Virus record (IMG/VR): IMGVR_UViG_2850711898_000002
DNA from: an uncultured virus (IMG/VR IMGVR_UViG_2850711898_000002)
Taxonomy: Duplodnaviria > Heunggongvirae > Uroviricota > Caudoviricetes
Direction: 5' to 3' (one strand)
DNA length: 64,000 nucleotides
In this document: in pieces, positions 5,942 through 36,974 of the stretch
Layout: each line of letters opens with the position of its first letter
Numbering within the stretch: position 1 is the first letter of the stretch
Notes under the pieces: model-generated
Seen by the model: the letters and a program-made list of their open reading frames with translations, nothing else
The model's database searches: none
What the model was told of the DNA's origin: nothing
Made by a program: the position numbers and the translations under genes

Positions 5942-5949
5942 TATTTCTA

Positions 5950-9673: not shown

Positions 9674-9681
9674 GAGTAAAC

Positions 9682-10017: not shown

Positions 10018-10068
10018 TCACAATGATAAAACCGCACTTTTTATGTGCGGTTTTTATTGGAGAATAAT

Positions 10069-10719: not shown

Positions 10720-10720
10720 A

Positions 10721-12086: not shown

Positions 12087-12089
12087 TAA

Positions 12090-13488
12090 ATGCAGATAGT
12101 TGGTAGAAAAGGCGGTGGGAAAGGCGGTAGAGCACCAGTTGAAGCGCCCGACTCGCTAAAATCTTGCTCTTATGCAAAATTTATTGATGTTATTTCTTGT
12201 GGCGAAATTGAAGGACCGGTAAATGGACTGAACTCAGTTTACTTTGGTGATGTACAGTTACAAGATGAAAAAGGCAAATTCAATTTTAATAATGTTGCTA
12301 TTGAGTGGCGACCTGGAAGTGTGAGACAAGCACCGTCAGAAATTTGCCAAACCAATGAAGTGACAACAGATGTTAATACCGAAGTAAAAAAAGACAAACC
12401 TATCACCCGCTCTATTATTGCACCAGAAGCAGATATTGTTAGAGTAACTATTACTGTGCCTGGATTAAGTCATCAAAATAAAAGTAATGGTGATATTAAT
12501 GGAACAAAAGTTGAGTTAAAAGTTGAATATCAAGCTAACGGTAGCCACTGGATAGATGCAGGCAATATCGTTATCGAGGGTAAAACCACATCATCATATA
12601 ATCGCGAACATAGCTTTAGATTAACAGGCGAAGCTCCCTGGAATATAAAAGTGACACGGTTAACTGATGATTCAGATAGCCAGGCTTTACAAAACAAAAC
12701 CATTTTTTCAAAAATCACAACGGTTTTTGAGGAAAAATTAACTTATCCTGGCGTGGCATATGTCGGCGTGCAAATAGACGCTGAGCAATTTAGCTCAATA
12801 CCATCTCGTGGGTATCATTGCCGTGGCATCAAACTAAAAGTGCCCTCAAACTACAATCCAGAAACTCGAGAATATAGCGGTGATTGGGATGGTACATTTA
12901 TTGTCAAATACTCAAATAACCCTGTTTGGATTTATTTTGATTTACTCACTAACGAGGAATATGGGGCAGGGGAATACATCAAAGAAGATATGCTAGATAA
13001 ATGGTCGATGTACCAAATAGCGAAATATTGCGACGAATTAGTCCCTGATGGATTTGGTGGCCGTGAACCTCGCTTTACCTGCAATGTTTACATCCAAACC
13101 AAACAAGAAGCCTTTAAGCTGTTACGAGATTTAACATCGGTATTTAGAGCAATGAGTTATTGGAGTAGCGGTACTCAAATGCTCGTCCAAGACTCACCCA
13201 AAGAGCCTATTTATCAGTTTAATAATACCAATGTTATCGGCGGTAAATTCAGCCGCTCAGGCTCGAATATTAAAACTCGTCACAATGTTGTATTAGTGAC
13301 GTGGAACGACCCGAAAAAGTACTTTAAACAATCTGTAGAGTACATCGAGGACTCGGAGGCGATTGTTAAGATGGGGTACATATCCCAAACGGAAGTTGTG
13401 GCGTTCGGCTGTACATCGAGAGGGCAAGCGAGACGACTAGGGAAATGGCTACTTTATACTGAGCAATACGAAAGCGAAGTTATTACGT
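12090..13488 (+). pseudogene. Host-specificity/tip attachment protein J, truncated after ~466 aa
   Basis: GRKGGGKG, GEIEGPV, EPRFTCN, GCTSRGQARR; J-like sequence stops at ESEVIT where ICE sequence begins. Confidence 0.88.
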
Positions 13489-14820
13489 GTTGCAGAAGAT
13501 GTAGATGAAAGTAGTTTGAATTATGCTGAGATTAAGGCACTTGCTACTGGTGATCCAAAGATAAAAGAAAAGATGGATTTGGATAATGAAGTTACGAAAC
13601 TTAAAATGCTTGAAGCAAACTACAAGTCCAATCGATATAGATTAGAGGATAAGGTTGCAAAGATATATCCTGAAGAAATAGCAAGGACTGAAAAGCTAAT
13701 TAAAGCAGTGCAAAATGATATTGAAAATGTTGAGCCACAAGGAAGTGGTGAAAATAAATTTACTTCTATAACTATTAATGGCGAGATAATTCGAGATAAA
13801 AAGATCGCTGGAGAAAAGCTCTTAGAAGCGATTAAAGGCGTAAAAATTAATGAAAGTAAGGTCATAGGACAGTACCGAAATATGGATTTAGAGGTAAGCT
13901 ATAACTTCTTTACCAATGAGCATAATTTCAATTTAAAAGGTGCTGCAAACCATTCGGGAGAGCTTGGTACAAGTGCAGATGGTAATATTACAAGATTAGA
14001 TAATGCTATTGATAAAATGCCTGAAAGGTTAAATCGTCTTGAAGAAAAACTCATTAGCACAAAGGAACAACTGGAAAATGCCAAAGAGGAACTGAAAAAG
14101 CCTTTTGAAAAAGCAGATGAGCTAAAGACAAAAGTATTAAGACTTGCAGAATTAAACAAGCTACTTGATATGGGAGAAGTAGAAGAAAAAGAAAATCCTA
14201 ATCCATTACTTGAAGATGTAAAGAGGGCTATTGTAGATTTTTGCAAAAGGGAATATGAAGATGATAGTTATACCTATGAAAAATTTAGTAATCTATTTCC
14301 TGACCTTGCCCATATTGGAATTGCATATACTACTACACCAGATGAAAAGCATGAAATTCAATATGAAATTAGCTTAGAAGATTTTACAGCTACTCAATAT
14401 ATCAATGGAGAACCAATCACAAAGATTGATTATCTCAAAGACCTTGGAAGTGAAGAAAAGGCATTGGAATTTCTAAAACAAGAAATGGAATATGGAGACT
14501 TTGGAGAGTTTGTATCTATTGATGATAATGACCTTAAAAAAGCATTAGGTCTTGAAAGAGATGACAATGGTAATATCTATGATCCGCTTGCAAAAGATTT
14601 GGATAATGATGGTGTGCCAGATAGATACGATAATGACTTTAGAGACAGTGACTACTTTGAAACTACTTATGATGTAGAGGATAATATTCACACAAGGGCA
14701 GAAAGCAAAGAAAAGGTATCTGAAAAGCAGTCTATCTTAGGACAGATTAAGTCATATCAGTCAGAAGAAAAACAAGCAGAAACACGAGAAAATAAATCAA
14801 AAGAACATGATGAACGTTAA
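13486..14820 (+). pseudogene. C-terminal remnant of the large ICE SNF2-like helicase/methylase
   Basis: RVAEDVDESSLNYAEIKALATGDPKIKEKMDLD in frame from 13486; N-terminal part missing. Confidence 0.8.
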
Positions 14821-14872
14821 GGGGCTTTTTACAAGCTCCTTTTTACTTTTGTAGAAACTATGGAGGTATATT

Positions 14873-15465
14873 ATGAACTACAAAGAAATGAGAAATACAC
14901 TAGAACAAATGTCAAACGAAAATCACGAAGATTTTGCAAAGGCACTAATTAGTTTTGAAAAGGGAATCAATGATAAAGATGCCTTGGACAAGTTATACCA
15001 GGAATATATGGATAATGATAGTATGAGCTTACTCAATGATAAGTTTGATTATTTGATTGATGAACTTAGAGAAAATGGACAGATTAAAGATAGTGTAGCA
15101 ATTGAAAAAGAAGACAATGATCTGGTGAATATTGTTGGAATATCGTAGGTGAGGTTGAAACAATTGAAAGAGAAAATAAGAATGGAGAAGCCTTTAAAGT
15201 AGTTAATTTCTCGGTTGTGTCAAAAGATGATGAGGGAAATAAGATTTACACTAATTGCTCAGCTTATGGGGATAGGGGAGATATTCCAAAGAACTTTAAG
15301 CAAGGAGACTTTGTAAAGCTTTTTGGACAGGTGAGATCATCCATTGACGATAACGGAAAGGAACATACTAATGTTAGAATACTATCGTCTAAGCTTTTAA
15401 AAGCAAAAGAACAGATGAAGAAGCAAGAAGAAAAGAAAGAATCTTCAAAGGAAACGGAGAGATAG
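14873..15465 (+). pseudogene. ICE SSB/OB-fold-like protein, frameshifted near 15140
   Basis: Restoring one A in GGAAT joins NIVG to NIVGEVETIERENKNGEAFKVVNFSVVSKDDEG. Confidence 0.6.
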
Positions 15466-15471
15466 AATATG

Positions 15472-15503
15472 TCGGTGTGGTCTTAGGGCTGCACCGATTT
15501 TTT
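15472..15503 (+). terminator. Intrinsic terminator
   Basis: TCGGTGTGG...CTGCACCGA followed by a T run. Confidence 0.65.
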
Positions 15504-15611
15504 ATTGCAAAATTAGTTCGAGAAAAAAGAAGATAATACTATTAAAAGTTCTATTATTATGCTATAATAGAAACGATGTGATATTAGGATGGATAAGACT
15601 GGAGGATAATC

Positions 15612-15842
15612 ATGTCAAAACTAAGCTATAAAAAATTATTTAAGAAATTAATAGATATAGAAATGAAAAATACTGAGCTTATGAAAAAAGCCAAAGTAAG
15701 TAAAAGTACATTCTACAAAATAAAAAATGGCGAAAATGTTACTACTGATGTATTGCTAAGGATATGTGATGTATTGGAATGCGATATTTCGGAAATTGTA
15801 GAGTGTGTAAGTATTGAAGATGGAGGAAAAACGGGTGTCTAA
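15612..15842 (+). CDS. Cro/C1-type HTH regulator, possible RM controller
   Basis: LSYKKLFKKLID...ICDVLECDISEIVE. Confidence 0.85.
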   Translation: MSKLSYKKLFKKLIDIEMKNTELMKKAKVSKSTFYKIKNGENVTTDVLLRICDVLECDISEIVECVSIEDGGKTGV

Positions 15843-16896
15843 GTTTACAGTTATAGATTTATTTTCAGGAGCTGGTGGGCTATCCAAAGGATTTTTAGAC
15901 GCTGGTTTTGATGTTATTTTAGGAATTGATTTTGATGATAGTGCATTGAAAACTTTTGAAAATAATCATGGCAAAGCTAAAGCATTAAAATTGGATTTAT
16001 TTAATCTTGATAATATTAATTATATAATTTCAGAGTTTGGTAGAGAACATAATACACTTGATGTATTAGTTGGTGGGCCGCCTTGTCAAGGCTTTTCTTT
16101 AGCTGGTAAAAGAGAAGAAGATGATAAAAGAAATATGTTATATAAAGCGATGGTTAAATTGGCGGAAAGAATGAAGCCAAGAGCTGTTGTATTAGAAAAT
16201 GTTCCTGGAATGCTAACACTTTATGATGGTGCTGGCAAAAAAAGAATATTTAATGATTTTGAAAAGCTTGGTTATAAAATGTCAGTGAAAGTTTTATATG
16301 CACCTGAATATGGTGTTCCACAAATACGTAAAAGAGCTTTTTTTGTAGGGCTATTGAATTCTAAGGAAGAGTTTACATTTCCAGAGCCTATTCTTTCCTC
16401 AGAAAATTTTGTTGCTTGTGAAGATGCAATAGGAGACTTACCATCTTTAGAAGGTATTTATGGCGATGAGATACAGGAATATGAATGTAGTCCACAAACA
16501 AAATATCAAGCTGAAATGAGAAAAAATTCAACTAAATTATATAACAATATAGGAACAATTCATTCGGCAAAAACAGTGAAGATGATTTCTCTTGTGCCAG
16601 AAGGGAAAAATTATAAAGCTTTACCAGAAGAATATAGAAATATGTATAAATATAATGAAGCATTAACACGATATCATAGCAAGAAACCTTCATTAACTAT
16701 AAATACTGGGCATAGATCACATTTTCACTACAAATATAATAGAATACCGACGGTAAGAGAGAGTGCGAGGTTACAGTCTTTCCCAGACGATTTTATTTTT
16801 TATGGGAATAAATCCGAACAATATAAGCAAGTTGGGAATGCAGTACCACCTAAATTGGGGTATGCTATTGCAAAAAAACTCAAGGAATATTTATAG
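15835..16896 (+). CDS. C5-cytosine DNA methyltransferase M1
   Basis: DLFSGAGG, GGPPCQGFS, ENV, GVPQ.R.R, QVGNAV. Confidence 0.95.
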   Translation: MSKFTVIDLFSGAGGLSKGFLDAGFDVILGIDFDDSALKTFENNHGKAKALKLDLFNLDNINYIISEFGREHNTLDVLVGGPPCQGFSLAGKREEDDKRNMLYKAMVKLAERMKPRAVVLENVPGMLTLYDGAGKKRIFNDFEKLGYKMSVKVLYAPEYGVPQIRKRAFFVGLLNSKEEFTFPEPILSSENFVACEDAIGDLPSLEGIYGDEIQEYECSPQTKYQAEMRKNSTKLYNNIGTIHSAKTVKMISLVPEGKNYKALPEEYRNMYKYNEALTRYHSKKPSLTINTGHRSHFHYKYNRIPTVRESARLQSFPDDFIFYGNKSEQYKQVGNAVPPKLGYAIAKKLKEYL

Positions 16897-16914
16897 AGAA
16901 AGGCTAACAGTAGT

Positions 16915-18138
16915 ATGCAAAAATATAAATTTATAGACTTATTCGCTGGTTGTGGTGGACTGGAAGATGGATTTATGCAAACTGGTGATTATGAGTGCAT
17001 ATCGTCAGTTGAATGGCTGAAGCCACAAGTAGATACGCTAAGGTATAGATTAAAAAATAAATATAATATATTAGATGCGGATGAATCTGTACTACACTTT
17101 GATATACAGAGAGAAGATGAACTATTTAATGGTTGGAGTAACGATGAGAACTTTGGTTCCTCTTTGGGGCTAGATCATTATGTTAAAAAATCAAATGGTG
17201 TAGACTTAATTATAGGCGGACCACCTTGTCAAGCTTATTCAATTGCAGGTAGAGTTAGGGACGAAAATGGAATGCGAAACGATTATAGAAATTATCTTTT
17301 CGAACATTATCTATCCGTTGTAAAAAGATATAAGCCCAAAGTATTTGTATTTGAAAATGTACCTGGAATATTAAGTGCAAAGCCAAATGACAAAAAGATA
17401 ACTGAAATAATTGAAGAAGAGTTTAAAAAAAGCGGATATGTAATCAGCAATAAGATACAGAAGTATGGGGTTGTTGATGCTTCTAAATATGGAGTACCTC
17501 AAAGGCGAAAAAGGGTGATTTTACTTGGCGTTAGAAAGGATTTGGATTCTTTAGACTCTATATATGATAAGATTGATGATTTTTATAATGTAATTCTACC
17601 TAAATATCAACAGAAAGAGGTGACGGTGGGAGAAGCAATAGATGATCTGCCTAAAATCAGTCCTATCTGGGATGAGGAAAAAAGAACGAATAAAAAAGCA
17701 TATACTTATCAAGAAGGGATAAATTGGCATATACCTCGTTACCATAATTTGAGAGATATGGATATTTACAAAATGTTGGCTGAAGATATTGAGACTGGTG
17801 AAAAGAAATATACCAACGCTGCGGCTATTACTAAAATATATGAACAAAAAGTTGGATCTAAGTCATCGATACATAGATACCATGTTTTGAGAAAGGATGA
17901 GCCTAGTACGACAATCATTGCTCATTTATATAAGGATGGTAATAGATTTATCCACTACGATTCATCCCAAGCTAGAAGTATTACACCACGTGAAGCAGCA
18001 CGACTTCAATCATTTGACGATGATTTTAACTTTATTGGGTCGCAAGGAAGTGTATATCAAATGATTGGTAATGCTGTACCACCCAAATTAGCTTTAGCAA
18101 TAGGTAAAGCTGTAAAAGAGTTTTTAGATAATCTATAG
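16915..18138 (+). CDS. C5-cytosine DNA methyltransferase M2
   Basis: DLFAGCGG, GGPPCQAYS, FENV, MIGNAV. Confidence 0.95.
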   Translation: MQKYKFIDLFAGCGGLEDGFMQTGDYECISSVEWLKPQVDTLRYRLKNKYNILDADESVLHFDIQREDELFNGWSNDENFGSSLGLDHYVKKSNGVDLIIGGPPCQAYSIAGRVRDENGMRNDYRNYLFEHYLSVVKRYKPKVFVFENVPGILSAKPNDKKITEIIEEEFKKSGYVISNKIQKYGVVDASKYGVPQRRKRVILLGVRKDLDSLDSIYDKIDDFYNVILPKYQQKEVTVGEAIDDLPKISPIWDEEKRTNKKAYTYQEGINWHIPRYHNLRDMDIYKMLAEDIETGEKKYTNAAAITKIYEQKVGSKSSIHRYHVLRKDEPSTTIIAHLYKDGNRFIHYDSSQARSITPREAARLQSFDDDFNFIGSQGSVYQMIGNAVPPKLALAIGKAVKEFLDNL

Positions 18139-18151
18139 AGAGGAGATTAAC

Positions 18152-19864
18152 ATGTTCCATTATTTATATACAAATGATATGAGGGTATCTAATTTAGAAG
18201 AAAAAGCTACATCATTTGCAAAAATGTTCTTAACAGATTCAGTTCCATCAGCTAGTGAAGATAAATCTACAAATAATAATGCTAATACAATTGGATTTTA
18301 TTTAAACCTTATCAATAAAGGCAACAGTGCGAAACTAGCAGCTAAGGGTGATGTTAGAAGTGTTGTGCTTAATTTTATTAAAACATTTCAATTTCCAAAT
18401 CCAAGGACAAAAGAAAGTTTTGAAAACGCAGTTAGTGATGGCATTAAATTAGCTCCGATGCGTGAAATTATTAAAATACTTTTTATTTACTACCAAATGA
18501 ACTCTGGAGAAGTTTATTTAACAAAAGATGAAATAGTAAACTTTATTTTTTACAATAAAAATATAGCTTTGCAAATTGATGCCAATAGGATTCAACTGAT
18601 AAAACAAATTGAGGAATATAGGACGACTAAAAATTTGCCTTCAAATATTGCTCCAACTAGTGAAAGAATTTGGAAGCATCAGGATAGGCAAATTAATGAA
18701 TTATTGAGCGTTATTGAATGGTCAGAATTTATTGAGGTTAAGTCTGACAAGGTATTTTTTATAGTACCTACAAAAGATGATAGTAAGTATAAGTCTGAAC
18801 TATTGGATATTATCGTGTTTGATAAGTTTTGGAATTTCAATGTTCAAGACAATATTTCAGATTTAAAATCTAGTTATTTTGAATATTGTGATGAACAGAT
18901 AAGCGTCGAAAATATTGAATTTGAGAATTACAATGACATTCAATGTAACAAGCTAAACAGAAATATTCAAAATATATACTTTGGAGCACCTGGAACAGGA
19001 AAAAGTTATGGAGTGGATAAGTTAATAAGAAATTGCTATCCGGACATTGAGAATAAAGATAATCCATTTGTTTTTAAAACAACCATTTATTCAGACTATT
19101 CATATTACAACTTTATAGGAAATATTATGCCGACATCAAAAAATGGTGAAATCAGATATGACTTTAAGGCGGGTATTTTTTCACAAGCACTCGCAATGGC
19201 ATTTGAATATAGTGACAAGGAAATCTTTTTAATTGTTGAAGAAATGTCAAGAGGCAACATTGCAAGTATATTCGGTGATATTTTTCAATTATTAGATAGA
19301 GACGAGAACGGAGTTAGCGAATACTCAATTAATAATGATTTGATAATTCAACATTTTGATGAAAAAGGTATTAATATCGGTAAAAAAATATTCTTACCAA
19401 GGAATTTTCATATAATAGGAATAGTTAATACAAGTGACCAAAATGTAAACGTAATAGATACAGCGTTTAAAAGAAGATTTGGATTTGTATATGTTGATGT
19501 AAGTCCTGTTGGAATAATCATGAACGAATATGTGTTTACTCTAGCAAATAAGGAATTTGAATGGAATAAATTGTACATGTCATTAAATGAACTTATAACT
19601 ACAAAATTAGAACTTAGTGAAGATAAACAAATTGGACAGTTCTTCATTAAATTTAATAATTATAGTAATGATGAACAAAAATTTGCTGCAATACAAAATA
19701 AACTATTGCATTACCTATGGGATGATGTACAAGGTGCAGTTATTTCTGATGAGTATAAGATATTTAATAAAGAATACAAAACATTCTCTTCCCTATATAA
19801 AGATTTTGGTGAGAAACTTAATGTATTTAGTGAAGAACTAATTGATTTATATGATAAACAATAA
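18152..19864 (+). CDS. McrB-like AAA+ GTPase subunit (LlaJI R1-like)
   Basis: GAPGTGKS, IVEEMSRGN, NTSD McrB signature, DTAFKRRF. Confidence 0.85.
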   Translation: MFHYLYTNDMRVSNLEEKATSFAKMFLTDSVPSASEDKSTNNNANTIGFYLNLINKGNSAKLAAKGDVRSVVLNFIKTFQFPNPRTKESFENAVSDGIKLAPMREIIKILFIYYQMNSGEVYLTKDEIVNFIFYNKNIALQIDANRIQLIKQIEEYRTTKNLPSNIAPTSERIWKHQDRQINELLSVIEWSEFIEVKSDKVFFIVPTKDDSKYKSELLDIIVFDKFWNFNVQDNISDLKSSYFEYCDEQISVENIEFENYNDIQCNKLNRNIQNIYFGAPGTGKSYGVDKLIRNCYPDIENKDNPFVFKTTIYSDYSYYNFIGNIMPTSKNGEIRYDFKAGIFSQALAMAFEYSDKEIFLIVEEMSRGNIASIFGDIFQLLDRDENGVSEYSINNDLIIQHFDEKGINIGKKIFLPRNFHIIGIVNTSDQNVNVIDTAFKRRFGFVYVDVSPVGIIMNEYVFTLANKEFEWNKLYMSLNELITTKLELSEDKQIGQFFIKFNNYSNDEQKFAAIQNKLLHYLWDDVQGAVISDEYKIFNKEYKTFSSLYKDFGEKLNVFSEELIDLYDKQ

Positions 19865-19879
19865 TTGTAGAGGTGCGAA

Positions 19880-21103
19880 ATGAGTCAACAGGAAATTCGG
19901 GTAGTAAATGATGGTCAAACTGTTGATAAAGACTTCGTAAACTCTTGGGAGATATTTGATTATTGTGATCAATACAATGGAAGTCTTACAATATCTTTTG
20001 TCGGAGCAATTATAAAAAATGATAAAATTTTATTTTCATTTCCAAAACATTATAAAGTCGATGATGATGAACACAATCAAGTTTCTTGTATGAAACAAAT
20101 ACTTTATATTTTATCGAAATCAAAAGCAAGTTATGGTAGTTTTGATAAGGGAATAAAAGGAGAATTTCCGATAAAAGCATATTTAGGCATTTTGATGCAT
20201 TATAAGAAATATGGTTTATATTTATCTAATGAACAATATTATGAAAATGGATATGCTGGAAACATAGATTGGAATAGAACAGTAAATAAATCAAACAAAA
20301 TCATTCAGAAAAAAGGTGTAATATTTTTCCCATTCACTATTAAGAGGACTAGGGATAAAAGTGTATTTATTAGCGAATGTATGAATTACGTTTTATCAGA
20401 TGCAAGCAGATATAAGAAGTTTATAAATACTATTATGCCGTATGAATATATTAATAAAAACAATATATTCAACAACTTAAGGTATGTACTTAATGTACTT
20501 AATGTACTTAATGAACTAAAAAGGATTAGAAATCTATATTTTAAAGATATAGAAAAAAGGCTTATTAACAATTTGATTGAATATATAGAGTGGAAAAGCA
20601 CAACTAGAGATAATGTCAGACTTATAACATTGAAATTTGAAAATTATTGGGAAGTAATGATAAATGAATATCTCAACGATGGTTTTTGTGGAATAGAAGA
20701 AGATCAAATTATTTGGGGAGAAAACAAACAAAATAAATTTTCTAAGCCAGAAATGGAATATGTGGAAAGCGTAGAAAAAAGATTGCAACATAGAGGTAGA
20801 AGTCCGTATAAAATACAGTACGATCATATATTTATTGATGTTGATAATAGAAAAATTGTTCTTTTTGATTCAAAGTATTTTAACGCGGAAGTGGATCAAT
20901 TGAATTATAAACAATTATTTTATCATTATAATTTAAAGCAGAAGTACCCTCAATTTCTTATATATAATGGATTGCTTTTACCAACAGAAAAAGACTACTA
21001 TACAAAAATTCATGTAGATAGAACCGATCTCGATGGTGTTAAGATTGTAGAACATTATATTAACTTGAATTCAGTGCTGGATCATTATTCTGGGAAAATA
21101 TAA
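19880..21103 (+). CDS. LlaJI-family (McrC-like) restriction endonuclease subunit
   Basis: FPKHY, IDWNRT, FENYWEVM, D..DSKY..KQ..Y. Confidence 0.78.
   Translation: MSQQEIRVVNDGQTVDKDFVNSWEIFDYCDQYNGSLTISFVGAIIKNDKILFSFPKHYKVDDDEHNQVSCMKQILYILSKSKASYGSFDKGIKGEFPIKAYLGILMHYKKYGLYLSNEQYYENGYAGNIDWNRTVNKSNKIIQKKGVIFFPFTIKRTRDKSVFISECMNYVLSDASRYKKFINTIMPYEYINKNNIFNNLRYVLNVLNVLNELKRIRNLYFKDIEKRLINNLIEYIEWKSTTRDNVRLITLKFENYWEVMINEYLNDGFCGIEEDQIIWGENKQNKFSKPEMEYVESVEKRLQHRGRSPYKIQYDHIFIDVDNRKIVLFDSKYFNAEVDQLNYKQLFYHYNLKQKYPQFLIYNGLLLPTEKDYYTKIHVDRTDLDGVKIVEHYINLNSVLDHYSGKI
20484..20510 (+). repeat. ATGTACTTA x3 in-frame tandem repeat
   Basis: Encodes VLNVLNVLN. Confidence 0.9.
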
Positions 21104-21227
21104 TGCAATGTATCGCATACATTTTATGGTTTAGATGAAGACAGGAATAAACTTGTACTCTATATAGTTCTTAATGTTTATATTTACTAAAGTGAAGTTT
21201 TCTACATTATCTGAGAGAGGTGATAAA

Positions 21228-23914: not shown

Positions 23915-23941
23915 CTTTTATTTTGAGGAGATGAAATTTAA

Positions 23942-25199: not shown

Positions 25200-25233
25200 T
25201 AAGATAAAATAAGAAATCGATATAGTGATAGCA

Positions 25234-26565
25234 TTACCTCTCAATCTCTTTACCCATATACTTCTCATAATTTTTTCTGATTTGATACAGTTCTTTCATA
25301 TCGGATTTTGCAGAAGAATACTCTTGCATTAGGGTATTCTTTTTTTCATGTAATGAATCAAGCTCTTTCAAAATATCCTTGGAATTTGGAAGTTTTGAGT
25401 AAGAGTTTTTTAGGTCTGAAAGGGCGTTTTGATATAGTGTTATTTCTGATTTATGTTCTTTCCAAAAAGCCTTATCAGACGGATCTTTCTTATATTCCAG
25501 ATAGATTTGGCGATACAATTTTACGGTATGAACTTGTTCCATAGTATTTGATAGAACTGAAATTTTGTTATCAATAACTTTGATTTGATCCTGTATATTT
25601 TGTCTATTTAATGCACTTCCCTTAATGGATTCATCAAGCTGGGAGATAGACTTAAATCCTTTTTCACGCATCAAAAGTACAGTATCGGCAGCAGTTTTCA
25701 AATTATGTTTTGTAGCCCAATACTCATAGCCTTTGCTTGATTTTATCTTTTCGTTATTTGCAGTATCTATAATATTTCCTACACGTTTTTTAACAGTATG
25801 TGTTCTTTGATTAGTATTACCTAAGATACGCTCTTTTAATCTATCCTCAGCATAATCTTCTCCAATTGTCTTAGCTCGTGTAAATCTTTCTTTGTCTTTG
25901 TGTTTAAATGCAATGTGCTTTCCATACTTGATTTCATAATTAAGGGCAGCTATTCTCTTTATAAAATCATCCCAATCGTCGGATTGTTTAATAGCTCTAT
26001 CTATATCAAATTGAAGCCTACTTTTCCAAGAAGCACCTTTCTTAAATTGGTCGTTTTCATACCATGACTTACCATTAGCCTTATATTTATTTCTATAAGT
26101 TTCATAGAACTCATCAATAACAGATAGATTATTTTCTTTGCACAATTTATCGCTTTGATACCTAATTTGATAATAGCTTCTCTTGTTAGACTGGTAGCAC
26201 TTGCCAGTAATCATATTTACATTATTGAAGATGATATGGTTATGGATATGACCTTTGTCTCTATGGGTAGTAAGCACGAACTCGTACTGATCCTTAAGTA
26301 TTCTCTTACAAAGTTCCATTCCGATTTGATGTGCTATTTCTGGCGTAGCTTCACCAGGCATAAATGATTGAATTAGGTGTCTTGCAAGTACAGTTCCATT
26401 AACTTTATTATCTTCTCTAGTCTTCATAAAAGCAGTATGGGCAGTTGAAGCAAAGCACTTATTTGTGCTTACCAATATCTTTTCATCTGTCTTTTCTTCA
26501 TTTGTTATATAAGCAATAGCAAGATTAAGAGTAGATTTAATTGGATGTATCTTTGTAATTGCCAC
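25234..26565 (-). CDS. MOBP-type relaxase
   Basis: MAITKIHPIK, RHLIQSF, THRDKGHIHNHIIFN. Confidence 0.92.
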   Translation of the reverse strand: MAITKIHPIKSTLNLAIAYITNEEKTDEKILVSTNKCFASTAHTAFMKTREDNKVNGTVLARHLIQSFMPGEATPEIAHQIGMELCKRILKDQYEFVLTTHRDKGHIHNHIIFNNVNMITGKCYQSNKRSYYQIRYQSDKLCKENNLSVIDEFYETYRNKYKANGKSWYENDQFKKGASWKSRLQFDIDRAIKQSDDWDDFIKRIAALNYEIKYGKHIAFKHKDKERFTRAKTIGEDYAEDRLKERILGNTNQRTHTVKKRVGNIIDTANNEKIKSSKGYEYWATKHNLKTAADTVLLMREKGFKSISQLDESIKGSALNRQNIQDQIKVIDNKISVLSNTMEQVHTVKLYRQIYLEYKKDPSDKAFWKEHKSEITLYQNALSDLKNSYSKLPNSKDILKELDSLHEKKNTLMQEYSSAKSDMKELYQIRKNYEKYMGKEIER

Positions 26566-26925
26566 TTATATGTCATTTCCTTTGTTGGTAGTTTTATTGA
26601 GCAGTAGGGAATGTATTTGCCATATTTCTTTTGATAGATGTTCAATTTGGGACTGCATATCTTTGATGTCATCGCTATAGATAACACCAGTAGAATTAAC
26701 TCGTTTAGCAATTTGATTGACGCTACTTGCATACCTAAAAAGCAATCCTTGTATTTCCCTAAAGGGCTGTAAATCAACAACATAAATATCAGATTCAGAT
26801 ACTACTTTTCTTAGAAAGTGGTTCATCGTCTTACACTTTGCCATTTTCATTTTCTTTTCAAAAAGTGCTTTTTCTTCTTCTGTTAAGTTTATTTTTAGCT
26901 GAACATTTCTAATTCTATTTGCCAT
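26566..26925 (-). CDS. mobC: Relaxosome protein MobC
   Basis: RHH-like N-terminus, SVNQIAKRVN; directly upstream of the relaxase. Confidence 0.85.
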   Translation of the reverse strand: MANRIRNVQLKINLTEEEKALFEKKMKMAKCKTMNHFLRKVVSESDIYVVDLQPFREIQGLLFRYASSVNQIAKRVNSTGVIYSDDIKDMQSQIEHLSKEIWQIHSLLLNKTTNKGNDI

Positions 26926-26949
26926 TTCTGTTACTTCCTTTCAAAAAAG

Positions 26950-27070
26950 TTGTGGTCTTAGGGTACTCCCTAACAAGCTAAAATTGATAAAAAAAGAAGC
27001 AACTCCAAGAGGGCTGCTTCATCGATTTTTCGTAAGTGGGTACACGCTTACTGTGCTTGCTACATAAGAA
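26950..27070. other. Candidate oriT
   Basis: Upstream of mobC; hairpins TTAGGG-TACT-CCCTAA, GAAGCA...TGCTTC and GTAAG-TGGGTACACG-CTTAC. Confidence 0.5.
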
Positions 27071-27155
27071 TGATTTGTAAAGCAAGCGTTAAGCGAGATA
27101 CGAGTTTGTGTCTTAATTATACCAAGTATAGAAGTTAATGTCAGCGTATTTAAGA

Positions 27156-27238
27156 AACTATTTCTAAAAAAATTGAAATAGTTATTGAGTTAAGTCCTAT
27201 GATGATGTTATAATTATTTTGAAAAAATTTGAAATAGG
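27156..27238 (+). promoter_or_regulatory. ArsR operator inverted repeats and promoter
   Basis: AACTATTTC-n10-GAAATAGTT at 27156-27183, a similar site near 27212-27237, and TGTTATAAT extended -10. Confidence 0.5.
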
Positions 27239-27257
27239 TCATGGAAAGGCTAAGCTA

Positions 27258-27518
27258 ATGAATTATTATGCTAAGTTTAAAGCTTTATCCGATTCGATAA
27301 GACTGGATATATTAAATGAATTGAATAAAGGGGAACTATCTGCAGGGGATATTGCAGATAAATTTGCTCTGCCGAATTCAAAAGTTTCGTATCATTTAGC
27401 GATACTAAAAAAAGTAGATATGGTTACAGAAAGAAAATATAAGAATTTTATTTTTTATAGCCTAAATCTGAATGGTATTCAGGAAGCTTCAACTTGGTTT
27501 GATAGATTCCAAAAATAA
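27258..27518 (+). CDS. ArsR/SdpR-like repressor
   Basis: FKALSDSIRLDIL, SAGDIA, SYHLAIL, FIFYSLN. Confidence 0.85.
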   Translation: MNYYAKFKALSDSIRLDILNELNKGELSAGDIADKFALPNSKVSYHLAILKKVDMVTERKYKNFIFYSLNLNGIQEASTWFDRFQK

Positions 27519-27811
27519 AATTCGCATAAATAAGCTTTCTAAAATTAGCAATTACAAGGAGATGAAGATTTAACTGTTAATTAGGAGGATGATGTGCATG
27601 ATATGGGTTACGCACGATTTAATAAAAGGGATTCATAATTTTTTGTGCGGAAAATTTTCCTTATTGCATTTATCCTTTACCTAATTCTAAACTTAATAAA
27701 TTAAATAGTAGAACTGTTTTTGTTCATTTGCGAGGACTCGGTGTGCCATCATGCCGTAGTCCTCCTTTTTTGTTTTCAAACAAGATTTTGAAACGAAAAG
27801 GAGGACAAAAA

Positions 27812-28225
27812 ATGAATAAAGAATACTTCTTGTTTGTAAACGGAAAGAAGATCAAAGTTAGCGAGGAGATCTATAAAGTCTATTGGCAAGAGAAAAATCA
27901 TGAGAATTACTTGAAGCAGATAGATCGAAAAAATCATCTGCTTTTATTTTCTTCTTTTGACCATGATGGACATTTTGAAGATAGCATCGTTGACGAGGGA
28001 TTTGATGTAGATAAGATTGTTCAGACACAAATGATGATAGAGGCAGTACGAGATGCGCTATCAAAATTAAATGATGAAGAAAGAGAAATCATTGATAGAC
28101 TTTATTTCAATGATGAAACCATTCGCTCAGTAGCTGAAACTAAAAAAATATCTCATCCAGCTCTCATAAAGAGAAGAAATAAGATATTGGACACGTTAAG
28201 AGAATTGTTGAAAGACTTTAGGTAA
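27812..28225 (+). CDS. Sigma-70 region 4-type ICE regulator
   Basis: VSEEIYKVY, LSKLNDEEREII, HTH; AGGAGG RBS. Confidence 0.8.
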   Translation: MNKEYFLFVNGKKIKVSEEIYKVYWQEKNHENYLKQIDRKNHLLLFSSFDHDGHFEDSIVDEGFDVDKIVQTQMMIEAVRDALSKLNDEEREIIDRLYFNDETIRSVAETKKISHPALIKRRNKILDTLRELLKDFR

Positions 28226-28389
28226 TATTAACTTAAAGGAGCTAGAAAGATAAAATCTATCGGCTCCTTTTAATTTGCTAGAATGGAAAAATATGTTTAA
28301 AAATGATATAATTATATCATATATTCATAAAATAAATTTTAAAAATACAGAGTTTTAATTTGTATTATTTATAAAAGAGGGGGGATAAT

Positions 28390-30926
28390 ATGGCTATTAA
28401 TTTTTCGAAATTGAAGTCTTCATCTAACCAAGCATCTATAGAACCAAGAGATATTTTTATGGCATTGCCTGCAAAGGATAAAAGCTATGGGTATCCTCGT
28501 GATGTTCAAACAGAAGTTTGGAAACAGTGGTTTGATAAACGAAATGAAAAAAACACAATAATAAAAATGAACACTGGAAGTGGAAAAACTGTTGTGGGGT
28601 TAACGATTTTACAGAGTTGTTTAAACGAAGGAAAAGGTCCTGCAGTGTATATTGTTCCAGATAATTTTTTAATAAAGCAAGTTTGTGGCGAAGCAATAAA
28701 GCTAGGGATTAGGGTTGCTTATGATAATGAAGGTGTGAAAGGTGAAGAAGATTATTATTTCAAGCATAATAAAGCAATTTTAGTAACAAATATACACAAA
28801 TTAATTAATGGTAAAAGCGTGTTTGGGTTACGCTCGAGTAATAATGTTAAAATTGGTAGTATCATAATCGATGATGTACACGCTTGTTTAGATACAATAG
28901 AAAGACAACACACAATAACTATTGAATCTAATCATGATTTATATAAAAAAATAATTTCATATGTATCTAACTATGCAGAAGTCAAGGAAAGCCAAAATTT
29001 TTGTGATATAAAAGACAGAAATGATCCGAGATACAGTTACTTGGTTCCATTTTGGATTTGGCAAAAAGAATGTCAAAATATATATAATAGTATTTCTGAT
29101 GAAGATTACAAGGATGAAGCATTTGTATTGTTTAATCTTCCATTGATGCGTGATAATTGGAAAACAGCTAATTGTGTTATTTCTGCTCGTAGGGTTGAAA
29201 TAACATTAAAAGGTACTCCTATAAATAAAATAACTAGTTTTGAAGAAGCCCAACGTAGGATATTTATGAGTGCGACACTAGCGGATGATAGTGTATTTGT
29301 ATCTAGTATTGGATTAAAAGAAAAAGAGCTTTCAAATATCATTACACCTGAAAAGGCAAATGATATTGGTGAAAGGCTCATAATTTTTCCTAAACATTTA
29401 AATGCTAAGATAACAGATGAAGAGATAAAAAATGAAATTTATAATATTGCTAAGCAACATAATGTTGTAGTTATTGTACCATCTTTTGATAGAGCTAATT
29501 TTTGGAATGATATAAGTCCCAGTCAAATTCTTTCATCAAATGCAGATAATATACAAAGTGGTGTTGATAAATTAAAGAGTGGAGAATTCACGGGAATTAC
29601 AATTCTAGTAAACAAGTATGATGGAATTGATTTACCAGATGATGCTTGCCGAATTCTTGTTGTTGATGGATTACCAAGTATACGGAGTGAGTATGATTTA
29701 GCAATACAAGGGATGAATCCAAATGACAACAGATTGTGCAGAGAACAAATTCAGAAAATTGAACAGGGAATGGGTAGAGGGGTTAGATCAAATAATGATT
29801 TCTGCTCAATAGTATTAATGGGAGAAAAACTAGCGGATGTAATTGTAAATCAACATGGTAAAGAATTTTTTAGTTCAGCAACACTAGAACAATGGAATCT
29901 TTCTCAGCAACTATGGGAACAACTAATGGAATCGACACAAAGTCCTACTATAAAAAATATTTTTGATTTGACTAATTATATGTTTGAGCGTAACCCAGAG
30001 TGGATTTCTGCTAGTAAATCTAATTTATCTAATGTTGTGTACAATAAATCTGGTAATGTAGATTCTTTGATTCTTGCGACGCGGAAGGCTTTTGAAAAAG
30101 AATGCTTAGAAAATTATGAAGAAAGTTTTTCGATTATAGAGCAAGAAAAGAATAAAACAAATGATAACAAAACTAAAGGGTTATTGATGCAATATATGGC
30201 TGAATATAAGAACTTCAGCAATCCAGCTGTGGCACAGGAAATATTACTTTCAGCAAGAAACCTTAATTCTATGGTTTTAAAACCAATTAAGGGAATCCAA
30301 TTTTCAAAATTAACTAGTACAAATAATGGACAATCTAGCTCTATTATAAAATATATTGAAGAAAATGAATTAAATGCCAATGAATATATTCTACATGTAT
30401 CGGCTATATTGGAAGATTTAAACTTTTCAGATAATCCTGCGAAACGATTTGAAAAAGCACTTAATGATGTAGCATCAGTTATAGGTATTGCATCCTCTCG
30501 CCCAGAAGTTCAGTTTGGAGGAGAAGCTCCTGATAACTTACTAGCATTTTCAAATTCTGAATATGTAATTATTGAATGTAAGAATAGAACGACAACAGAA
30601 TTAATTTCAAAAGATGACTGTGAGCAGTTACTTAGTTCGATACAATGGTTTAAGAATCATTATATTCTTGGAGAAAATATATTCCAATTATGATTCATAA
30701 TAGTGATACTTTCCGAACTGAGGCATCACCTAGTCCAGACATGAGAATTATGACACCTGAATTATTGGACGAATTCTCACGAGCAATAAGAGGGTTTGCA
30801 GAAGGGGTTGTCAAAAATGGAGTCTATGGGAATAACAAAGAAGTTGAAAAATTATTAAATTCATTCGGGCTAAATGGTTATCAGATAATTAATCAATATA
30901 CAAAGCCATTTAGTAAAAATAAATAA
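28390..30926 (+). pseudogene. SF2 helicase with C-terminal PD-(D/E)xK nuclease (Hna-like), frameshifted near 30675
   Basis: TGSGKT, IDDVH, MSAT, DGIDLP, QGMGRGVR, PD...IECK; one missing A in GAAAATAT separates the last ~80 aa. Confidence 0.7.
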
Positions 30927-30937
30927 CTTTTAAATTT

Positions 30938-30970
30938 TGCATCTATAAAATTTTATAGGTGCATTTTTTA
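30938..30970 (+). terminator. Intrinsic terminator
   Basis: TGCATCTATAAAA/TTTTATAGGTGCA followed by a T run. Confidence 0.7.
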
Positions 30971-31434
30971 AAAAATTTCATAAATCTGGTTACCAAGAGG
31001 GATAAATTTTCACTATTAAAGTGTAGGGGGAAATTTATCCTTTTTGCTTTTGAGGTAGAAGAGAAAATCTATTCCGTTATTAAGCAAAGAATCCTACATA
31101 GCAGAAAGCTAATTGATCTTTGACAACTGAATAGACCAAGGTGGGACGTTATCCATTTGTGGAGAATTATGACCTACGCCAAGACTTTTCTGCTGATAGA
31201 GTTGGTTTAAATGAATACTGGTAAGTGCCAAGGATAAAAGAAAAAGAGCGATAAATAGGAATACATAAAGGATAGGTGTGGCAATCTATCTCTGTGATGC
31301 GAATGGTGATAATGATACTTCAATAGTTTAAGCCGGCTCGTCTTAATAAGGGGCGGTGGTGAGATTCCAATGTAGCAGCCAATGCACCTACCAATGTCAT
31401 AAAACTTATTACAAATAATAGTGAGGTTAAGACT

Positions 31435-31590
31435 ATGAATAAGAAAAAAGAAGTTAAAAAAGATAAGGATAAGAAGCAAATAGCCGATGATTATTCTAAG
31501 AAAATAACCTACTCTACAAGCGAAAGTGAAAAGCTTGATTTACTGGATATTGTTGAGATGTATCTATGTAAATCCTGTGTCAGAATTTGA
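31435..31590 (+). CDS. 51-aa ICE protein upstream of the recombinases
   Basis: GAGG RBS; MNKKKEVKK...LDLLDIVEMYLCKSCVRI. Confidence 0.55.
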   Translation: MNKKKEVKKDKDKKQIADDYSKKITYSTSESEKLDLLDIVEMYLCKSCVRI

Positions 31591-31688
31591 GGGGCTGACA
31601 AAGAGAAATAGGGTGCGGTAAAATATAGGTGGTAGAAGTGATCTTCCGAAATGACTATTTGCCAAAATATCATTTTAGGAGGATTGTT

Positions 31689-33393
31689 ATGAGAAATACT
31701 GCGTGTATGTATCTTCGTCTTTCAAGAGAAGATGGAGACAGTAACGAAAGCAACTCTATTTTAAATCAAAGACAAATAATCAAATCTTACGCTAAAGAAA
31801 AGAACATAGATCTATCTTATGAATATGTAGATGATGGATATAGTGGTTCTAATTTTGAGCGTCCAAATTTTAAGAATATGATTAATGACCTGAATAAAGG
31901 AAAGTTTTCTATCATTATGGTAAAAGACTTATCTCGTTTTGGCAGAGATTATATCGAGTCAGGAAAGTACTTACAAAAGATATTTCCTGAAAAAGGTATT
32001 CGCTTTATATCTGTAAATGATAACTATGATAGTGATAATGCGGATGTTAGCGATACACATTTAATACTTCCGATTAGAAATTTTATCAATGACAGTTACT
32101 GTCGAGATATTTCTATGAAAGTGAAATCATCAAAAGAAGTGAAAAGGAAGAATGGAGAATTTATTGGTTCATTTGCTCCTTTTGGATACAAGAAAGATGA
32201 TAAGAATAAACATCAGCTTGTAGTTGATAGAAAAGTCGCTCATATTATTGAGCGAATATTTAATATGAAAATAGAGGGTTATTCCTCAAAGGCTATTGCC
32301 GACTTTCTAAACAGTATTGGAACAGTTACACCATCAAAGCATAAGGAAAATAATGGTGATAACTTCAATACTGGTTTTGTTGTGAAAAAAGCAAAGTGGG
32401 ATGCTAAAATGGTAAACCGTATTATTTCAAATAAGGTTTATATTGGTGTCCTAGAACAAGGAAAAACAGCAAAGTTAAATTATAAATCAAAGCATGAAGT
32501 AGATGTTTCAAAAGAAGACTGGATTGCCATAGAAAATGCTCATGAAAGTATAGTCTCAAAATCTATCTTTGCACTTGCAAATAAAATGCTACTTCGTGAT
32601 GTAAAAGGATCTAAGGATAAGCCACAAATCCTATCTGGAATGCTTTACTGCAAAGATTGTGGAAGTCCGATGATTAGGCGAAAGGTAAGAAATACAGTTT
32701 TCTATATTTGCTCCGAGTATAACAATTCAGGTGACTGTTCAAGGCATAGCATCAAAGAAGATTATGTTATAGGTGCAACAATTCACGCACTAAATGACTA
32801 TCTATCTAAGTACAATGAGCTACTTAAGAAAGTTAGCGAAATAGATGTTTCAAAATTTACTGTGAAAGTTGATTTTGAGTCATTATATGCAGAAAAAAGA
32901 AAATATGAAAGACTTAGACAATCTCTTTATATGGATTTAGAAGAAGAGCTTATTACAACTGAAGAATTTGAGCGATTTAGAAGAAGAGCTTATTACAACT
33001 GAAGAATTTGAGCGATTTAGAAAAAATTATCTTATCAAGATTAGAGAAATCGAGAAACAAATTATTACAAAGCAAAATATCGTAGAAGAATTAAAGATGA
33101 AGATAAACGATAAAGGTAGTTTCGTTTCTGAGATAGTTCCTAATCCTGAAAGTGATGAATTAAATCTACTATCTTTAGTCTCTTTTATAGACCGTATTGA
33201 GATTGGAGAGGATAATGCGATTAACTTTGTTTTCAACAATATTGGAACAGCGAATCCGCTTCAAGCGATTGTAGATAGTAATAAGGTTGAAGCAAAGGAC
33301 ACACATAAAGCAAGACTAATATCAATGGGCAAGTTATTTGGTGAGCATTTAGAAAGAACTGAACCTAAGCTTGCAGTTGGAGGTGTTTGTTAA
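31689..33393 (+). pseudogene. Large serine recombinase 1, frameshifted by a 40-bp duplication
   Basis: YLRLSRED, DDGYSG, KDLSRFGR, CKDC Zn ribbon. Confidence 0.88.
32934..33022 (+). repeat. 40-bp tandem duplication bounded by GATTTAGAA
   Basis: GATTTAGAAGAAGAGCTTATTACAACTGAAGAATTTGAGC at 32934 and 32974; GATTTAGAA again at 33014. Confidence 0.95.
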
Positions 33394-35058
33394 TGGCAAG
33401 GACTTCCAAAAGATATATAAGAAAAAGTGAAGAACAAGCACAAAAAATATTTTATAAAGCTGGAATATATACAAGATTATCCAGTGAAAGAAAAGAAGAA
33501 TGGCGTAAGAAATCATCGTCAATTGAAACACAGATACTTTGTTGTAAAGAATATGCTTTAAAGGAAAATATCAAAGTCGTAAATATCTACACAGACTATG
33601 AGTATAGTGGAACAAACTTTGAAAGACCACAGTTTCAAGAGATGATGCAAGATATTCGTGAAAGAAGAATTAATTGTATTATCATAAGGGACTTATCAAG
33701 ACTTGGAAGAGAATATCTTGAGATGGGAAGACTCATAGACAAGGTATTTCTGTTCTTGGGAGTGAGGTTTATTTCTGTTAATGATAAGGTTGATACCGTT
33801 AAGGATTTAAATTCTAAGAAATCATTTGAAAACTCTTAAGAATATCATCAACGATATGTATGCTAAAGATATTTCGGTAAAGATAAAGACAAGTAAGCAC
33901 AATAGGGCAAGAAATGGATATTTTATTGGCTCCGTTCCTCCCTATGGATATAAGGTAGTGAAATTAAAAGAAGGACAGAAATTAGAAATTGATGAGAATA
34001 TTAGGTTCATCGTTGAAGAAATGTTCCGATTGACACTTGAGGGGAAAAGCCAATATGAGGTTGCAAAACACTTTAATACAAAGGGTTATGCGACGGGAAT
34101 GGTCTATTACAAAACAGGTAGAATTTATAGACAAGATGGCGATCCACAGTGGAATAAAGGCACTATTTCCAAAATGCTTACTAACAGAGCTTACACAGGA
34201 ACTTTAGTGCAAGGTGTTAAGCAACAAAATCTTGCAAAAGGAATGAAGCGACAATTTGTAGATGAAAGTCAGCATATTATTTATGAAAATGCTCATGAAC
34301 CAATCATTTCAAAAGAAGACTTTGAAAAAGTGCTGCAAGGGCGAGCAAATAGACTAAAGAACAATGCTTTTGGTGCAAAAATGCATAATTTTAAAAGAGA
34401 TTATGAGAATAGATATAAGGGTTTGATTTTCAATAATGCAACAGGTAAGGAACTTTATCGAAGAACCAGAATTTACGGGACAAACCATGATAGGCTTTAT
34501 TACTCTTTTCAAAACGATACTTGCACAGGCAAGATAGATAACGAAGTAAGAGTATTTATTATGGAAAGAGAGCTTGATAAGGCAATGTCTGAAAAGGTAG
34601 CAGAGTTTATTACTAAGGCTACAAGCAAGGCAAAGCTAATAGAAAGAGTGTCTGCTAGGTTTTTTGAAAGTATAGATAAGCTAAACGAAGATATTTCAAA
34701 GCTTAAAATTAAGACGGAGAAGGAAGAATTCCTAATTCAAAAAGCTTATGAAGAATATAGCTTAGGCAAGATTGATAGGGAAGTATATAGCCTTAAAAGA
34801 GAGATTGCTCTTAGCCATATTGCAACAATCAATAATGAAGTTATTGCTATTGAAAAGGTTGTAAAAGACCTTGAAAGGGATAAGAAAACGTCTATTAAGT
34901 GGATTAAGAACGTATTTTCGGCAAAAAAGGTTGAAAAATTACCATCTGATTTAATTCATAGCTTAGTGGAAAAGATAATTGTCTATGGCAATCATAACTT
35001 TGAAATAATCTTTAAATTTAATATGGACAGTTTGATGGGAGGTGTTAATTTTGAGTAA
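33393..35058 (+). pseudogene. Large serine recombinase 2, frameshifted near 33830
   Basis: YTRLS, RDLSRLGR, then TLKNIINDMYAKDIS in another frame. Confidence 0.85.
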
Positions 35059-35482
35059 AATTGCACTTTATATCAGATTATCTGTGGAAGATCAGATGAA
35101 GAAAGATGAGAGTGAAAGCATCATCAATCAAAGGTATTTCCTGAATGACTTTCTGGATAGAAATGATGAATTTAAAAGCTTCCAAAGAGAAGAATATATT
35201 GATGACGGATATACCGGAACAAATGAGAAAAGACCATCTTTTCAAAGAATGCTTGAGGAAGTTAAGAATGGTAAAATCAATGCCATCATTGTAAAAGACT
35301 TATCGAGGTTTATGAGAGATTATATTTTGCTTGGTGATTATCTGGAGAATATTTTTCCTTTTCTTGGTATTAGGTTCATTGCTATTAATGATGGCTATGA
35401 TAGTGCAAAGGAAAAAGGGAATGGAACAGACCTTGATATTCAGTTTAAAGGTTTGTTATATGACTTCTATACAAAAGATATT
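35051..35482 (+). pseudogene. Large serine recombinase 3, truncated after the catalytic domain
   Basis: YIRLSVED, KDLSRF; ends at LYDFYTKDI. Confidence 0.85.
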
Positions 35483-35491
35483 ATGGGGTAG

Positions 35492-36779: not shown

Positions 36780-36974
36780 AACTTGAAAATTCCTATGTTT
36801 TTTTAATCTCTTTTTCAACTTTAAAACAATCTTAATCAAATCAATAAGATAGTTTAAAAGAGCCTGAAAGAGTGTTTAAATATAAGCAAACAACTTGAAA
36901 AATATTGTTTTCAAGCTGGAAGAGAGTTTAAACAGGTTTATTATTCTTTTCAGATTAACGAAGGAAGTTATCTG

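Follow-up and report, generated by a model that had tools for sequence, protein, structure and literature searches.

How 22 kb of AT-rich DNA with the mobilisation and recombination genes of a Gram-positive element came to lie between two prophages of Haemophilus type is the question raised by a 64,000-nucleotide stretch of uncultured-virus DNA (IMG/VR record IMGVR_UViG_2850711898_000002; this whole stretch is hereafter called the window). A first-pass annotation, made from the sequence letters without database searches, had described the block as a fragment of a Firmicutes integrative and conjugative element (ICE), either genuinely acquired across phyla or joined to its neighbours by faulty assembly. 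We conclude, with a probability that we place at roughly 0.88, that positions 13486-35483 are the immobilised right-hand 22-kb remnant of a ConjTn1549-family (Tn1806-type) element residing in Haemophilus influenzae, which is the most likely host of the block.

The composition of the window changes as abruptly as had been claimed. Measured in 1-kb windows, the G+C fraction (GC) is 0.257-0.339 across 14001-36000, as compared to 0.338-0.450 in the left flank (1-13000) and mostly 0.40-0.46 in the right flank (37001-64000), where a single dip to 0.31-0.36 is seen at 44-46 kb. Twenty copies of the Haemophilus-type DNA uptake sequence AAGTGCGGT are present in the window, where shuffled sequence would give 0.26, and none of them lies between 10039 and 37730; the six flank positions listed by the first-pass annotation (1501, 8815, 42060, 46144, 56585 and 63591) are all among them. 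With as many copies per base as the flanks (20 per 42,002 bp), the 21,998 bp of the block should hold 10.5, and the Poisson chance of finding none is 2.8e-5. A second proposed signature of the block, GGAGG ribosome-binding sites, did not hold: with provisional start codons, the 5-base Shine-Dalgarno core was found in 7/19 block genes and 12/28 flank genes, and the argument does not discriminate between them. The limits first assigned to the block (13486 to 35482) proved accurate to within a base or two, and Pfam and PHROGs identified both flanks as prophages. A search of a phage collection returned no match for the block or the left prophage, and for the Mu-like part on the right only one to a Mannheimia phage (6%, 72%).

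The identity of the block rests on its backbone genes, which, like all other genes of the window described here, lie on the plus strand unless otherwise stated. An open relaxase frame of family PF03432 (25234-26565, minus strand; Pfam E=5.1e-36) is accompanied by an open frame for a MobC/NikA-like accessory protein (26566-26925, minus strand; Pfam), the relaxase being of MOBP or Rel-II type. Further backbone genes encode a Cro/C1-type helix-turn-helix (HTH) regulator (15612-15842; Pfam HTH_26), an ArsR-family regulator (27258-27518; Pfam) and a sigma-70 region-4 protein (27812-28225; Pfam). Three neighbouring serine recombinase genes in the same orientation, with Resolvase and Recombinase and in part Zn_ribbon_recom domains, occupy 31689-35483, collinear with those of relatives and all broken. 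Relaxase, MobC, sigma-region-4 protein and recombinase triplet, on which the first-pass annotation had founded its Tn1549-like label, were thus all recovered with Pfam, and the label agrees with the published classification (Ambroset et al. 2016, PMC4701971), according to which streptococcal elements with a ConjTn1549 module can carry a serine integrase triplet and target hsdM or traG, with 2-8 bp repeats. In a further article (PMC13214566), the combination of a Rel-II pfam03432 relaxase and a triplet serine integrase is termed Tn1806-type. The window copy shares with Tn1806-type elements the integrase triplet at one end, the PF03432 relaxase with MobC and the backbone order, namely SNF2/methylase, HTH, cargo slot, relaxase, ArsR, sigma-region-4, second cargo slot and integrases. 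Its complete relatives also agree with that group in encoding conjugation proteins of VirD4 and VirB4 type and in inserting in hsdM. What sets the window copy apart is the Gram-negative host and its fragmentary state: conjugation module, termini and working integrase are all lacking. The term ICE fragment needs one correction: the conjugation module (VirD4-type, VirB4-type, VirB6-like and cell-wall hydrolase genes) is wholly absent from the window, and what is left is a remnant, derived from such elements and no longer a functional one.

ConjTn1549 elements with an integrase triplet are typical of streptococci and of Gram-positive oral and urogenital anaerobes. In a relaxase scan of one genome per species, which confirmed 312 of 391 candidate stretches and from which the best 80 were ranked, these 80 relatives came nearly all from Firmicutes (streptococci, Peptostreptococcaceae, Lachnospiraceae, Peptoniphilaceae and similar groups), together with a few from Veillonella, Megasphaera, Treponema pectinovorum and an Atopobium metagenome-assembled genome, and two Pasteurellaceae records. 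The closest relaxases in this set, at 91% protein identity, belong to oral streptococci. At the nucleotide level, the backbone segments 13486-15808, 25233-28227 and 30964-35482 are 89-95% identical to elements of S. agalactiae (CP138365.1; locus L003), S. mitis (L022) and other streptococci, the S. mitis copy being the closest with 94.8% in both compared segments. The cargo differs: the CP138365.1 element carries a HaeIII-type restriction-modification (R-M) system, an ABC transporter and a Tn916-like insert with erm(B), and the window copy carries LlaJI-type, Gabija, PDC-M14 and PDC-S28 genes.

The left junction could be mapped by aligning side by side the window, the nearest genome (G001) and five element relatives. 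The left flank (1-13488) is a truncated lambda-like siphovirus prophage by PHROGs and Pfam, 97% identical to G001, and its host-specificity J gene (12090-13488) breaks off at about profile position 466 of about 1174. Identity to G001 continues at 97% up to 13488-13491, beyond which the J gene of G001 runs on uninterrupted. The element relatives match the block from 13486, and the giant SNF2/Eco57I-methylase gene that begins the block extends further upstream in them: the window retains its last 444 codons (13486-14820; matched from 13486 by the streptococcal copies and by those of two Pasteurellaceae genomes, G194 and G195), and the complete protein of a relative has 2783 aa. The two crossover partners, J and the giant helicase/methylase gene, share only the three bases CGT (13486-13488). 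Because both genes are cut there and neither an element end nor a Mu end is present, the left join appears to have arisen by illegitimate recombination and neither by integration nor by transposition. Two specific sources were considered and rejected. Insertion into J by the element's own integrases does not fit, since some 24.6 kb of element sequence is missing between its terminus and the first base of the block, and a Mu-mediated deletion does not fit, as this junction has no Mu end.

The right junction is of a different kind. Identity of the element to all its relatives ends at 35482, the element itself at 35483, and from 35484 the sequence reads TGGGGTAGTGACAATATTTGC..., opening with the terminus TGGGGTAGTGACAAT of a Mu-like myovirus prophage (35484-64000; Pfam, PHROGs), which runs from its left end inwards and beyond the end of the window. 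The same Mu terminus stands beside three unrelated flanks, in the window, in G001, with an uptake sequence in the flanking DNA, and in a complete 38.4-kb provirus (G002). The external serine integrase gene (integrase 3, 35051-35483; Pfam Resolvase) keeps 144 of the 497 codons of a full-length relative, and its open reading frame (ORF) reads 3 codons into the phage end to a stop at 35489-35491. This edge is what transposition of the phage into the third integrase gene would be expected to leave. The lost C-terminal two thirds of integrase 3 gave 68 matches from 3062 candidates, with none named Haemophilus among the matches listed.

Misjoining of streptococcal or anaerobe DNA to Haemophilus contigs, through assembly or contamination, would account for the sharp change in composition, for the lack of uptake sequences in the block and for the cutting of genes at both edges. 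We looked up the predicted junction proteins exactly in about 15 billion public proteins, in which 23 of the 28 queried sequences were present; the resulting contig counts pool NCBI and Logan assemblies. The 146-aa product of the integrase 3/Mu junction was found exactly on 27 contigs and the 434-aa ORF that starts at 13516, just inside the left junction, on 22. Several of the assemblies with junction proteins bear the name Haemophilus influenzae. The J fusion of the window ends in ...EVITCCRRCR, and a variant named host specificity protein J of Haemophilus influenzae (P0004, 476 aa, on 16 contigs) ends in ...EVITCCRRCT and differs from it by a 4-aa insertion or deletion and 6 substitutions. 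We also screened the segment 8501-18500, one half of which is phage and the other element, so that a run lacking either half could hold at most about 0.50 of its sampled words: the share reached 0.77-0.90 in 20 sequencing runs, which come from 12 studies (2012-2024), 19 of these runs being labelled organism A and one organism B. Most of the 20 stand at 0.77 and two at 0.90. The sequence differences of P0004 and the spread over 12 studies indicate that the carriers are independent. The proteins of the window itself sit on a contig of 2,044,007 bp, and the joined sequences share no repeat able to mislead an assembler. With an exact Mu terminus at the right edge, junction proteins that recur on 16, 22 and 27 contigs, one of them as a variant with independent substitutions, and both halves present in the runs of 12 studies, a chimera is effectively excluded, and the choice that the first-pass annotation had left between real cross-phylum acquisition and chimera falls to the former.

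Several points weigh on the other side and should be kept in view. One isolate may have been counted twice in the pooled contigs. Support for the junctions is at the level of assemblies, proteins and run words. The 40-base junction strings were absent from viral_contigs and metagenome_contigs, a negative that is uninformative as close records may have been excluded from these sets. Among 20 representative genomes of the window's genus the block was found in none, 5 of them giving matches of about 30 bases only. Finally, the window contains neither of the element's true ends nor the site that it targeted.

Complete copies of the element were found elsewhere in the family. Of 236 Pasteurellaceae genomes, 42 gave some match and only G194 and G195 gave multi-kb backbone matches (92-93%); records titled Necropsobacter massiliensis FF6 and Haemophilus sp. 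FF7 show the same match pattern as these two and were not counted as further carriers. The copies of G195 (49.5 kb) and G194 (43.3 kb) are complete, with identical termini, a GC of about 0.32 and no uptake sequence. That of G195 splits hsdM, the published target of the family, at N6_Mtase profile position 55/56 and that of G194 splits a catalase gene. Open genes in the G195 copy encode a VirD4-type coupling protein, VirB6-like and PrgI proteins, a VirB4-like ATPase, a CHAP hydrolase, a topoisomerase and the 2783-aa SNF2/methylase. These copies are thus of the same element family as that of the window, equally AT-rich and free of uptake sequences in hosts with the same uptake sequence, and differ from it in being whole, with both termini, and in interrupting hsdM or catalase. 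The window copy is 92.6-93.7% identical to them and 94.8% to that of S. mitis, and the G194 and G195 copies differ from one another at least as much as they do from streptococcal ones. As the Pasteurellaceae copies are no closer to the window copy than the streptococcal copies are, the three look like separate acquisitions from a pool of streptococcal type. We also considered whether the window copy came from elsewhere in Pasteurellaceae, for which these identities give no support.

The G195 locus shows some further features. An IS200-like ORF lies between the right terminus of the element and the 3' part of hsdM (L017, 16600-19500), and the hsdM 3' segment with its neighbour appears twice, about 1.5 kb apart. 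A SieB-like superinfection-exclusion gene lies in the conjugation module (L015, 11785-12417) and a KilA-N protein is encoded at the left end. We also asked whether G001 could point to the original target in the lineage of the window: its hsdM genes, at about 862, 986 and 1363 kb, lie away from its copies of the left prophage (about 684 kb) and of the Mu-like prophage (about 1016 kb), and with none adjoining either prophage no inference could be drawn.

The lesions named by the first-pass annotation (nonsense, tandem duplication and small deletions) are all present, in the element as well as in the Mu-like block. They are neither sequencing noise nor random assembly errors: over 3 kb of the left prophage, one in-frame insertion or deletion of 12 bp is the only such difference from G001. 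The internal integrase gene (integrase 1, 31689-33393, frameshifted; Pfam Resolvase, Recombinase and Zn_ribbon_recom; 554 aa in relatives) carries, in comparison with 3 relatives, a 40-bp tandem duplication at about 32946-32985. The middle one (integrase 2, 33393-35058; Pfam), aligned with 3 relatives, is frameshifted by a 2-bp deletion at about 33831. A DNA-binding protein gene (14873-15465, 219 aa in relatives) is broken by a 1-bp deletion near 15138 and is also shorter near 15401-15435 in an alignment with 4 relatives. The description of the block as now decaying holds insofar as the lesions are real, and has to be divided as to their age, some being lineage-wide and others private to the strain. 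Sequences shared across the lineage (on 16-27 contigs) comprise both junction products, the 91-aa N-terminal fragment of the broken DNA-binding gene (exact on 23), the second methyltransferase of the LlaJI-type unit (25), PDC-M14A and PDC-M14B (22 each), the relaxase (24), the ArsR regulator (26) and the sigma protein (20); the Cro/C1-type regulator is found exactly on 61 contigs. In contrast, the gajB stop, the two broken integrase forms (2 contigs each), the MuA fragment and the 767-aa form of PDC-S28 are restricted to 1-2 contigs. Both edges, and the 1-bp deletion in the DNA-binding gene as judged from the recurrence of its 91-aa fragment, are thus common to a lineage of isolates, and the lesions in gajB, integrases 1 and 2, PDC-S28 and MuA appear private to the window strain.

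With all three integrases dead, the remnant cannot move; it is able neither to excise nor to conjugate. The relaxase and MobC frames are open and conserved, and one might suppose that they still allow the block to move as an integrative mobilisable element with the aid of a helper. We hold this to be very improbable: the three integrases are broken in the strain and integrase 3 is cut by Mu across the lineage, the left terminus has been deleted, the right terminus (...CTCTCTTTTTG) would lie beyond a prophage of about 38 kb, and the conjugation module is gone.

From these data a sequence of events can be proposed for the remnant. Conjugation with a bacterium living in the same niche would have brought the element in, and its own integrases would have inserted it; with its ends and target missing from the window, the integration site and the conjugative entry can only be inferred. 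A Mu-like phage would next have transposed into the outermost integrase gene. A deletion at the 3-bp microhomology would then have fused the last 444 codons of the giant gene to about codon 467 of J, removing at least 24.6 kb of the element, with the whole conjugation module, as well as the distal part of the lambda-like prophage. The duplication in integrase 1, the deletion in integrase 2, the gajB nonsense codon and the frameshifts in PDC-S28 and MuA would have followed later in the window strain only.

A different course would be the import of an element fragment, together with the Mu segment, from another Haemophilus strain by natural transformation, the Mu part, rich in uptake sequences, serving for uptake and as a homologous anchor and the far end of the element DNA being joined illegitimately to J. 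Haemophilus is naturally competent, and homology-facilitated illegitimate recombination is known in other competent bacteria. The 3-bp microhomology at the left join is in keeping with such an event, as is the presence of 14 of the 20 uptake sequences in the Mu part and none in the block, and related Mu-like prophages at another site in G001 and as the G002 provirus suggest that anchors are common. However, an earlier Haemophilus-like cell in which Mu had entered the element would still be needed, so that transformation would explain spread and not origin; moreover, a plain deletion gives the same junction in fewer steps, and no empty arrangement of the recipient type was recovered. We therefore judge this course unlikely and retain the deletion of a resident element as the preferred account of the left junction.

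The block was also predicted to be a defence island, and PADLOC bears this out with LlaJI-type R-M, Gabija, PDC-M14 and PDC-S28 genes. The LlaJI-type unit (15820-21103; Pfam, PADLOC, NCBIfam) has all its frames open in one operon: two 5-methylcytosine (m5C) methyltransferases (15820-16896 and 16915-18138; PF00145 twice), a McrB-like ATPase subunit (18152-19864; AAA_5 E=4.7e-4 and NCBIfam McrB E=8e-18, both below curated cut-offs) and a LlaJI endonuclease subunit (19880-21103; PF09563 RE_LlaJI E=4e-10), with a PADLOC REase_II hit at E=1.4e-90. By sequence this is the gene set of LlaJI-type R-M systems, with which it shares the two m5C methyltransferases and the putative McrB-like and LlaJI-family subunits. 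Changes in the subunit genes all keep the frame: 9 bp are deleted at about 19511, and at about 20496 a tandem duplication adds 18 bp. The unit is 96% identical to the occupant of the same slot in an element of Streptococcus bovimastitidis (L032). The exact R1 and R2 proteins of the unit were found on 2 contigs only, R1 being alone in its 90% cluster, and other carriers may have divergent or defective restriction subunits.

Gabija follows, with an open gajA (21174-22850; PADLOC GajA E=7.7e-199, full-length match) and a gajB (22847-23914) interrupted by a single in-frame nonsense codon at 23384-23386. GajB is therefore matched by PADLOC in two pieces, and in full only in the read-through translation, and the pair of GajA (ATPase with TOPRIM/OLD nuclease) and intact GajB (UvrD-like helicase) that defines the system is lacking in the window. 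This difference is confined to the window strain: the 179-aa form was found on 1 contig, and 20 contigs have GajB intact at 355 aa under the name Haemophilus influenzae. Next come the two open frames of a candidate defence pair, PDC-M14 A/B (23942-25199; PDC-M14A E=5.3e-56 and PDC-M14B E=7.7e-92 by PADLOC). The stretch of Gabija, PDC-M14 and relaxase is 82% identical to a locus of Eubacterium brachy (L082). The LlaJI module and the Gabija and PDC-M14 module occupy the same slot in Firmicutes elements, and the cargo, like the backbone, comes from this pool. The second slot holds a candidate defence gene for a DEAD/ResIII helicase, PDC-S28 (28390-30926; PADLOC E=1.1e-271 plus a C-terminal piece), which a frameshift near 30690 divides into 767 and 78 aa, as compared to 845 aa in relatives; the 767-aa form is on only 2 contigs. 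No resistance gene is annotated in the block. The frames of the LlaJI-type R-M unit, GajA, the PDC-M14 pair, relaxase and MobC have all been kept open. The present role of the block, if it has one, would be that of a defence island against phages and foreign DNA through methylation and restriction by the LlaJI-type unit and through the PDC-M14 pair, and Gabija would act in relatives with an intact gajB.

The Mu-like prophage has the gene set expected of its group. An S24 repressor (36075-36839, minus strand) and a Ner-like HTH protein (36975-37238) are followed by MuA (37252-39227), with Mu DNA-binding, rve core and Mu C-terminal domains, and MuB (39239-40120); these genes were identified with Pfam and PHROGs. 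These features, together with the 5'-TG end found at unrelated sites, identify it as Mu-like. Portal, protease, capsid, sheath, tape measure and baseplate hub genes are also present. The prophage resembles other Mu-like Haemophilus prophages such as G002 in its repressor, Ner-like protein, MuA, MuB, Mu-type head and contractile-tail genes and 5'-TG terminus; FluMu is presumably a further such prophage. In contrast to G002, where MuA is an open 667-aa frame and the large terminase a single 592-aa frame, the window copy has a 4-bp deletion in MuA at about 38116 and a large terminase (48281-50125) split into 180 and 415 aa. On account of these two lesions the prophage is probably defective as well, and since the broken N-terminal piece of MuA is on only 2 contigs, the inactivation of MuA is probably recent and private to the strain. 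In the terminase alignment a small cluster of changes is seen near 48793-48800. The AT-rich dip within this prophage (44001-46000, GC 0.31-0.36) contains an ORF on the opposite strand (45296-45880) that may be a moron or cargo gene.

In the left prophage, the gene order is head protease/capsid fusion, decoration, major tail, tape measure (6332-9673), minor tail and J. The J gene shows one more change, an in-frame 12-bp deletion at 12122 that shortens an N-terminal glycine run relative to G001 and P0004 and looks like repeat slippage.

There is precedent for defective conjugative elements, for Mu insertions and for defence genes carried by elements of this sort. What is new here is the host, the base-level account of the junctions and the integration of a family of Gram-positive type in Pasteurellaceae; our literature search found no account of a Tn1806-type element in Haemophilus or Pasteurellaceae, which is not proof of novelty. 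A broader reading, which we offer tentatively and regard as rather doubtful, is that the natural host range of the family, with its transfer apparatus of Gram-positive type, reaches Pasteurellaceae, of which it would have entered at least three lineages and inserted there through its own integrases, once at the canonical hsdM target, and that the H. influenzae copy, locked in place by Mu and the deletion, has been kept for its protective LlaJI, Gabija and PDC-M14 cargo as a domesticated cross-phylum defence island.

The locus provides a clean and datable case of DNA transfer from Gram-positive bacteria of the human airway and mouth to a Gram-negative pathogen of the same niche, and the copies of G194 and G195 indicate in addition that elements of this family have the means to insert themselves into proteobacterial genomes. 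Since streptococcal relatives carry erm(B) and other resistance genes, the same route is relevant to the spread of resistance too. It also illustrates how mobile elements disable one another: one integrase is destroyed by a transposable phage, the element ends up joined to another prophage through a deletion, and its defence genes stay behind.

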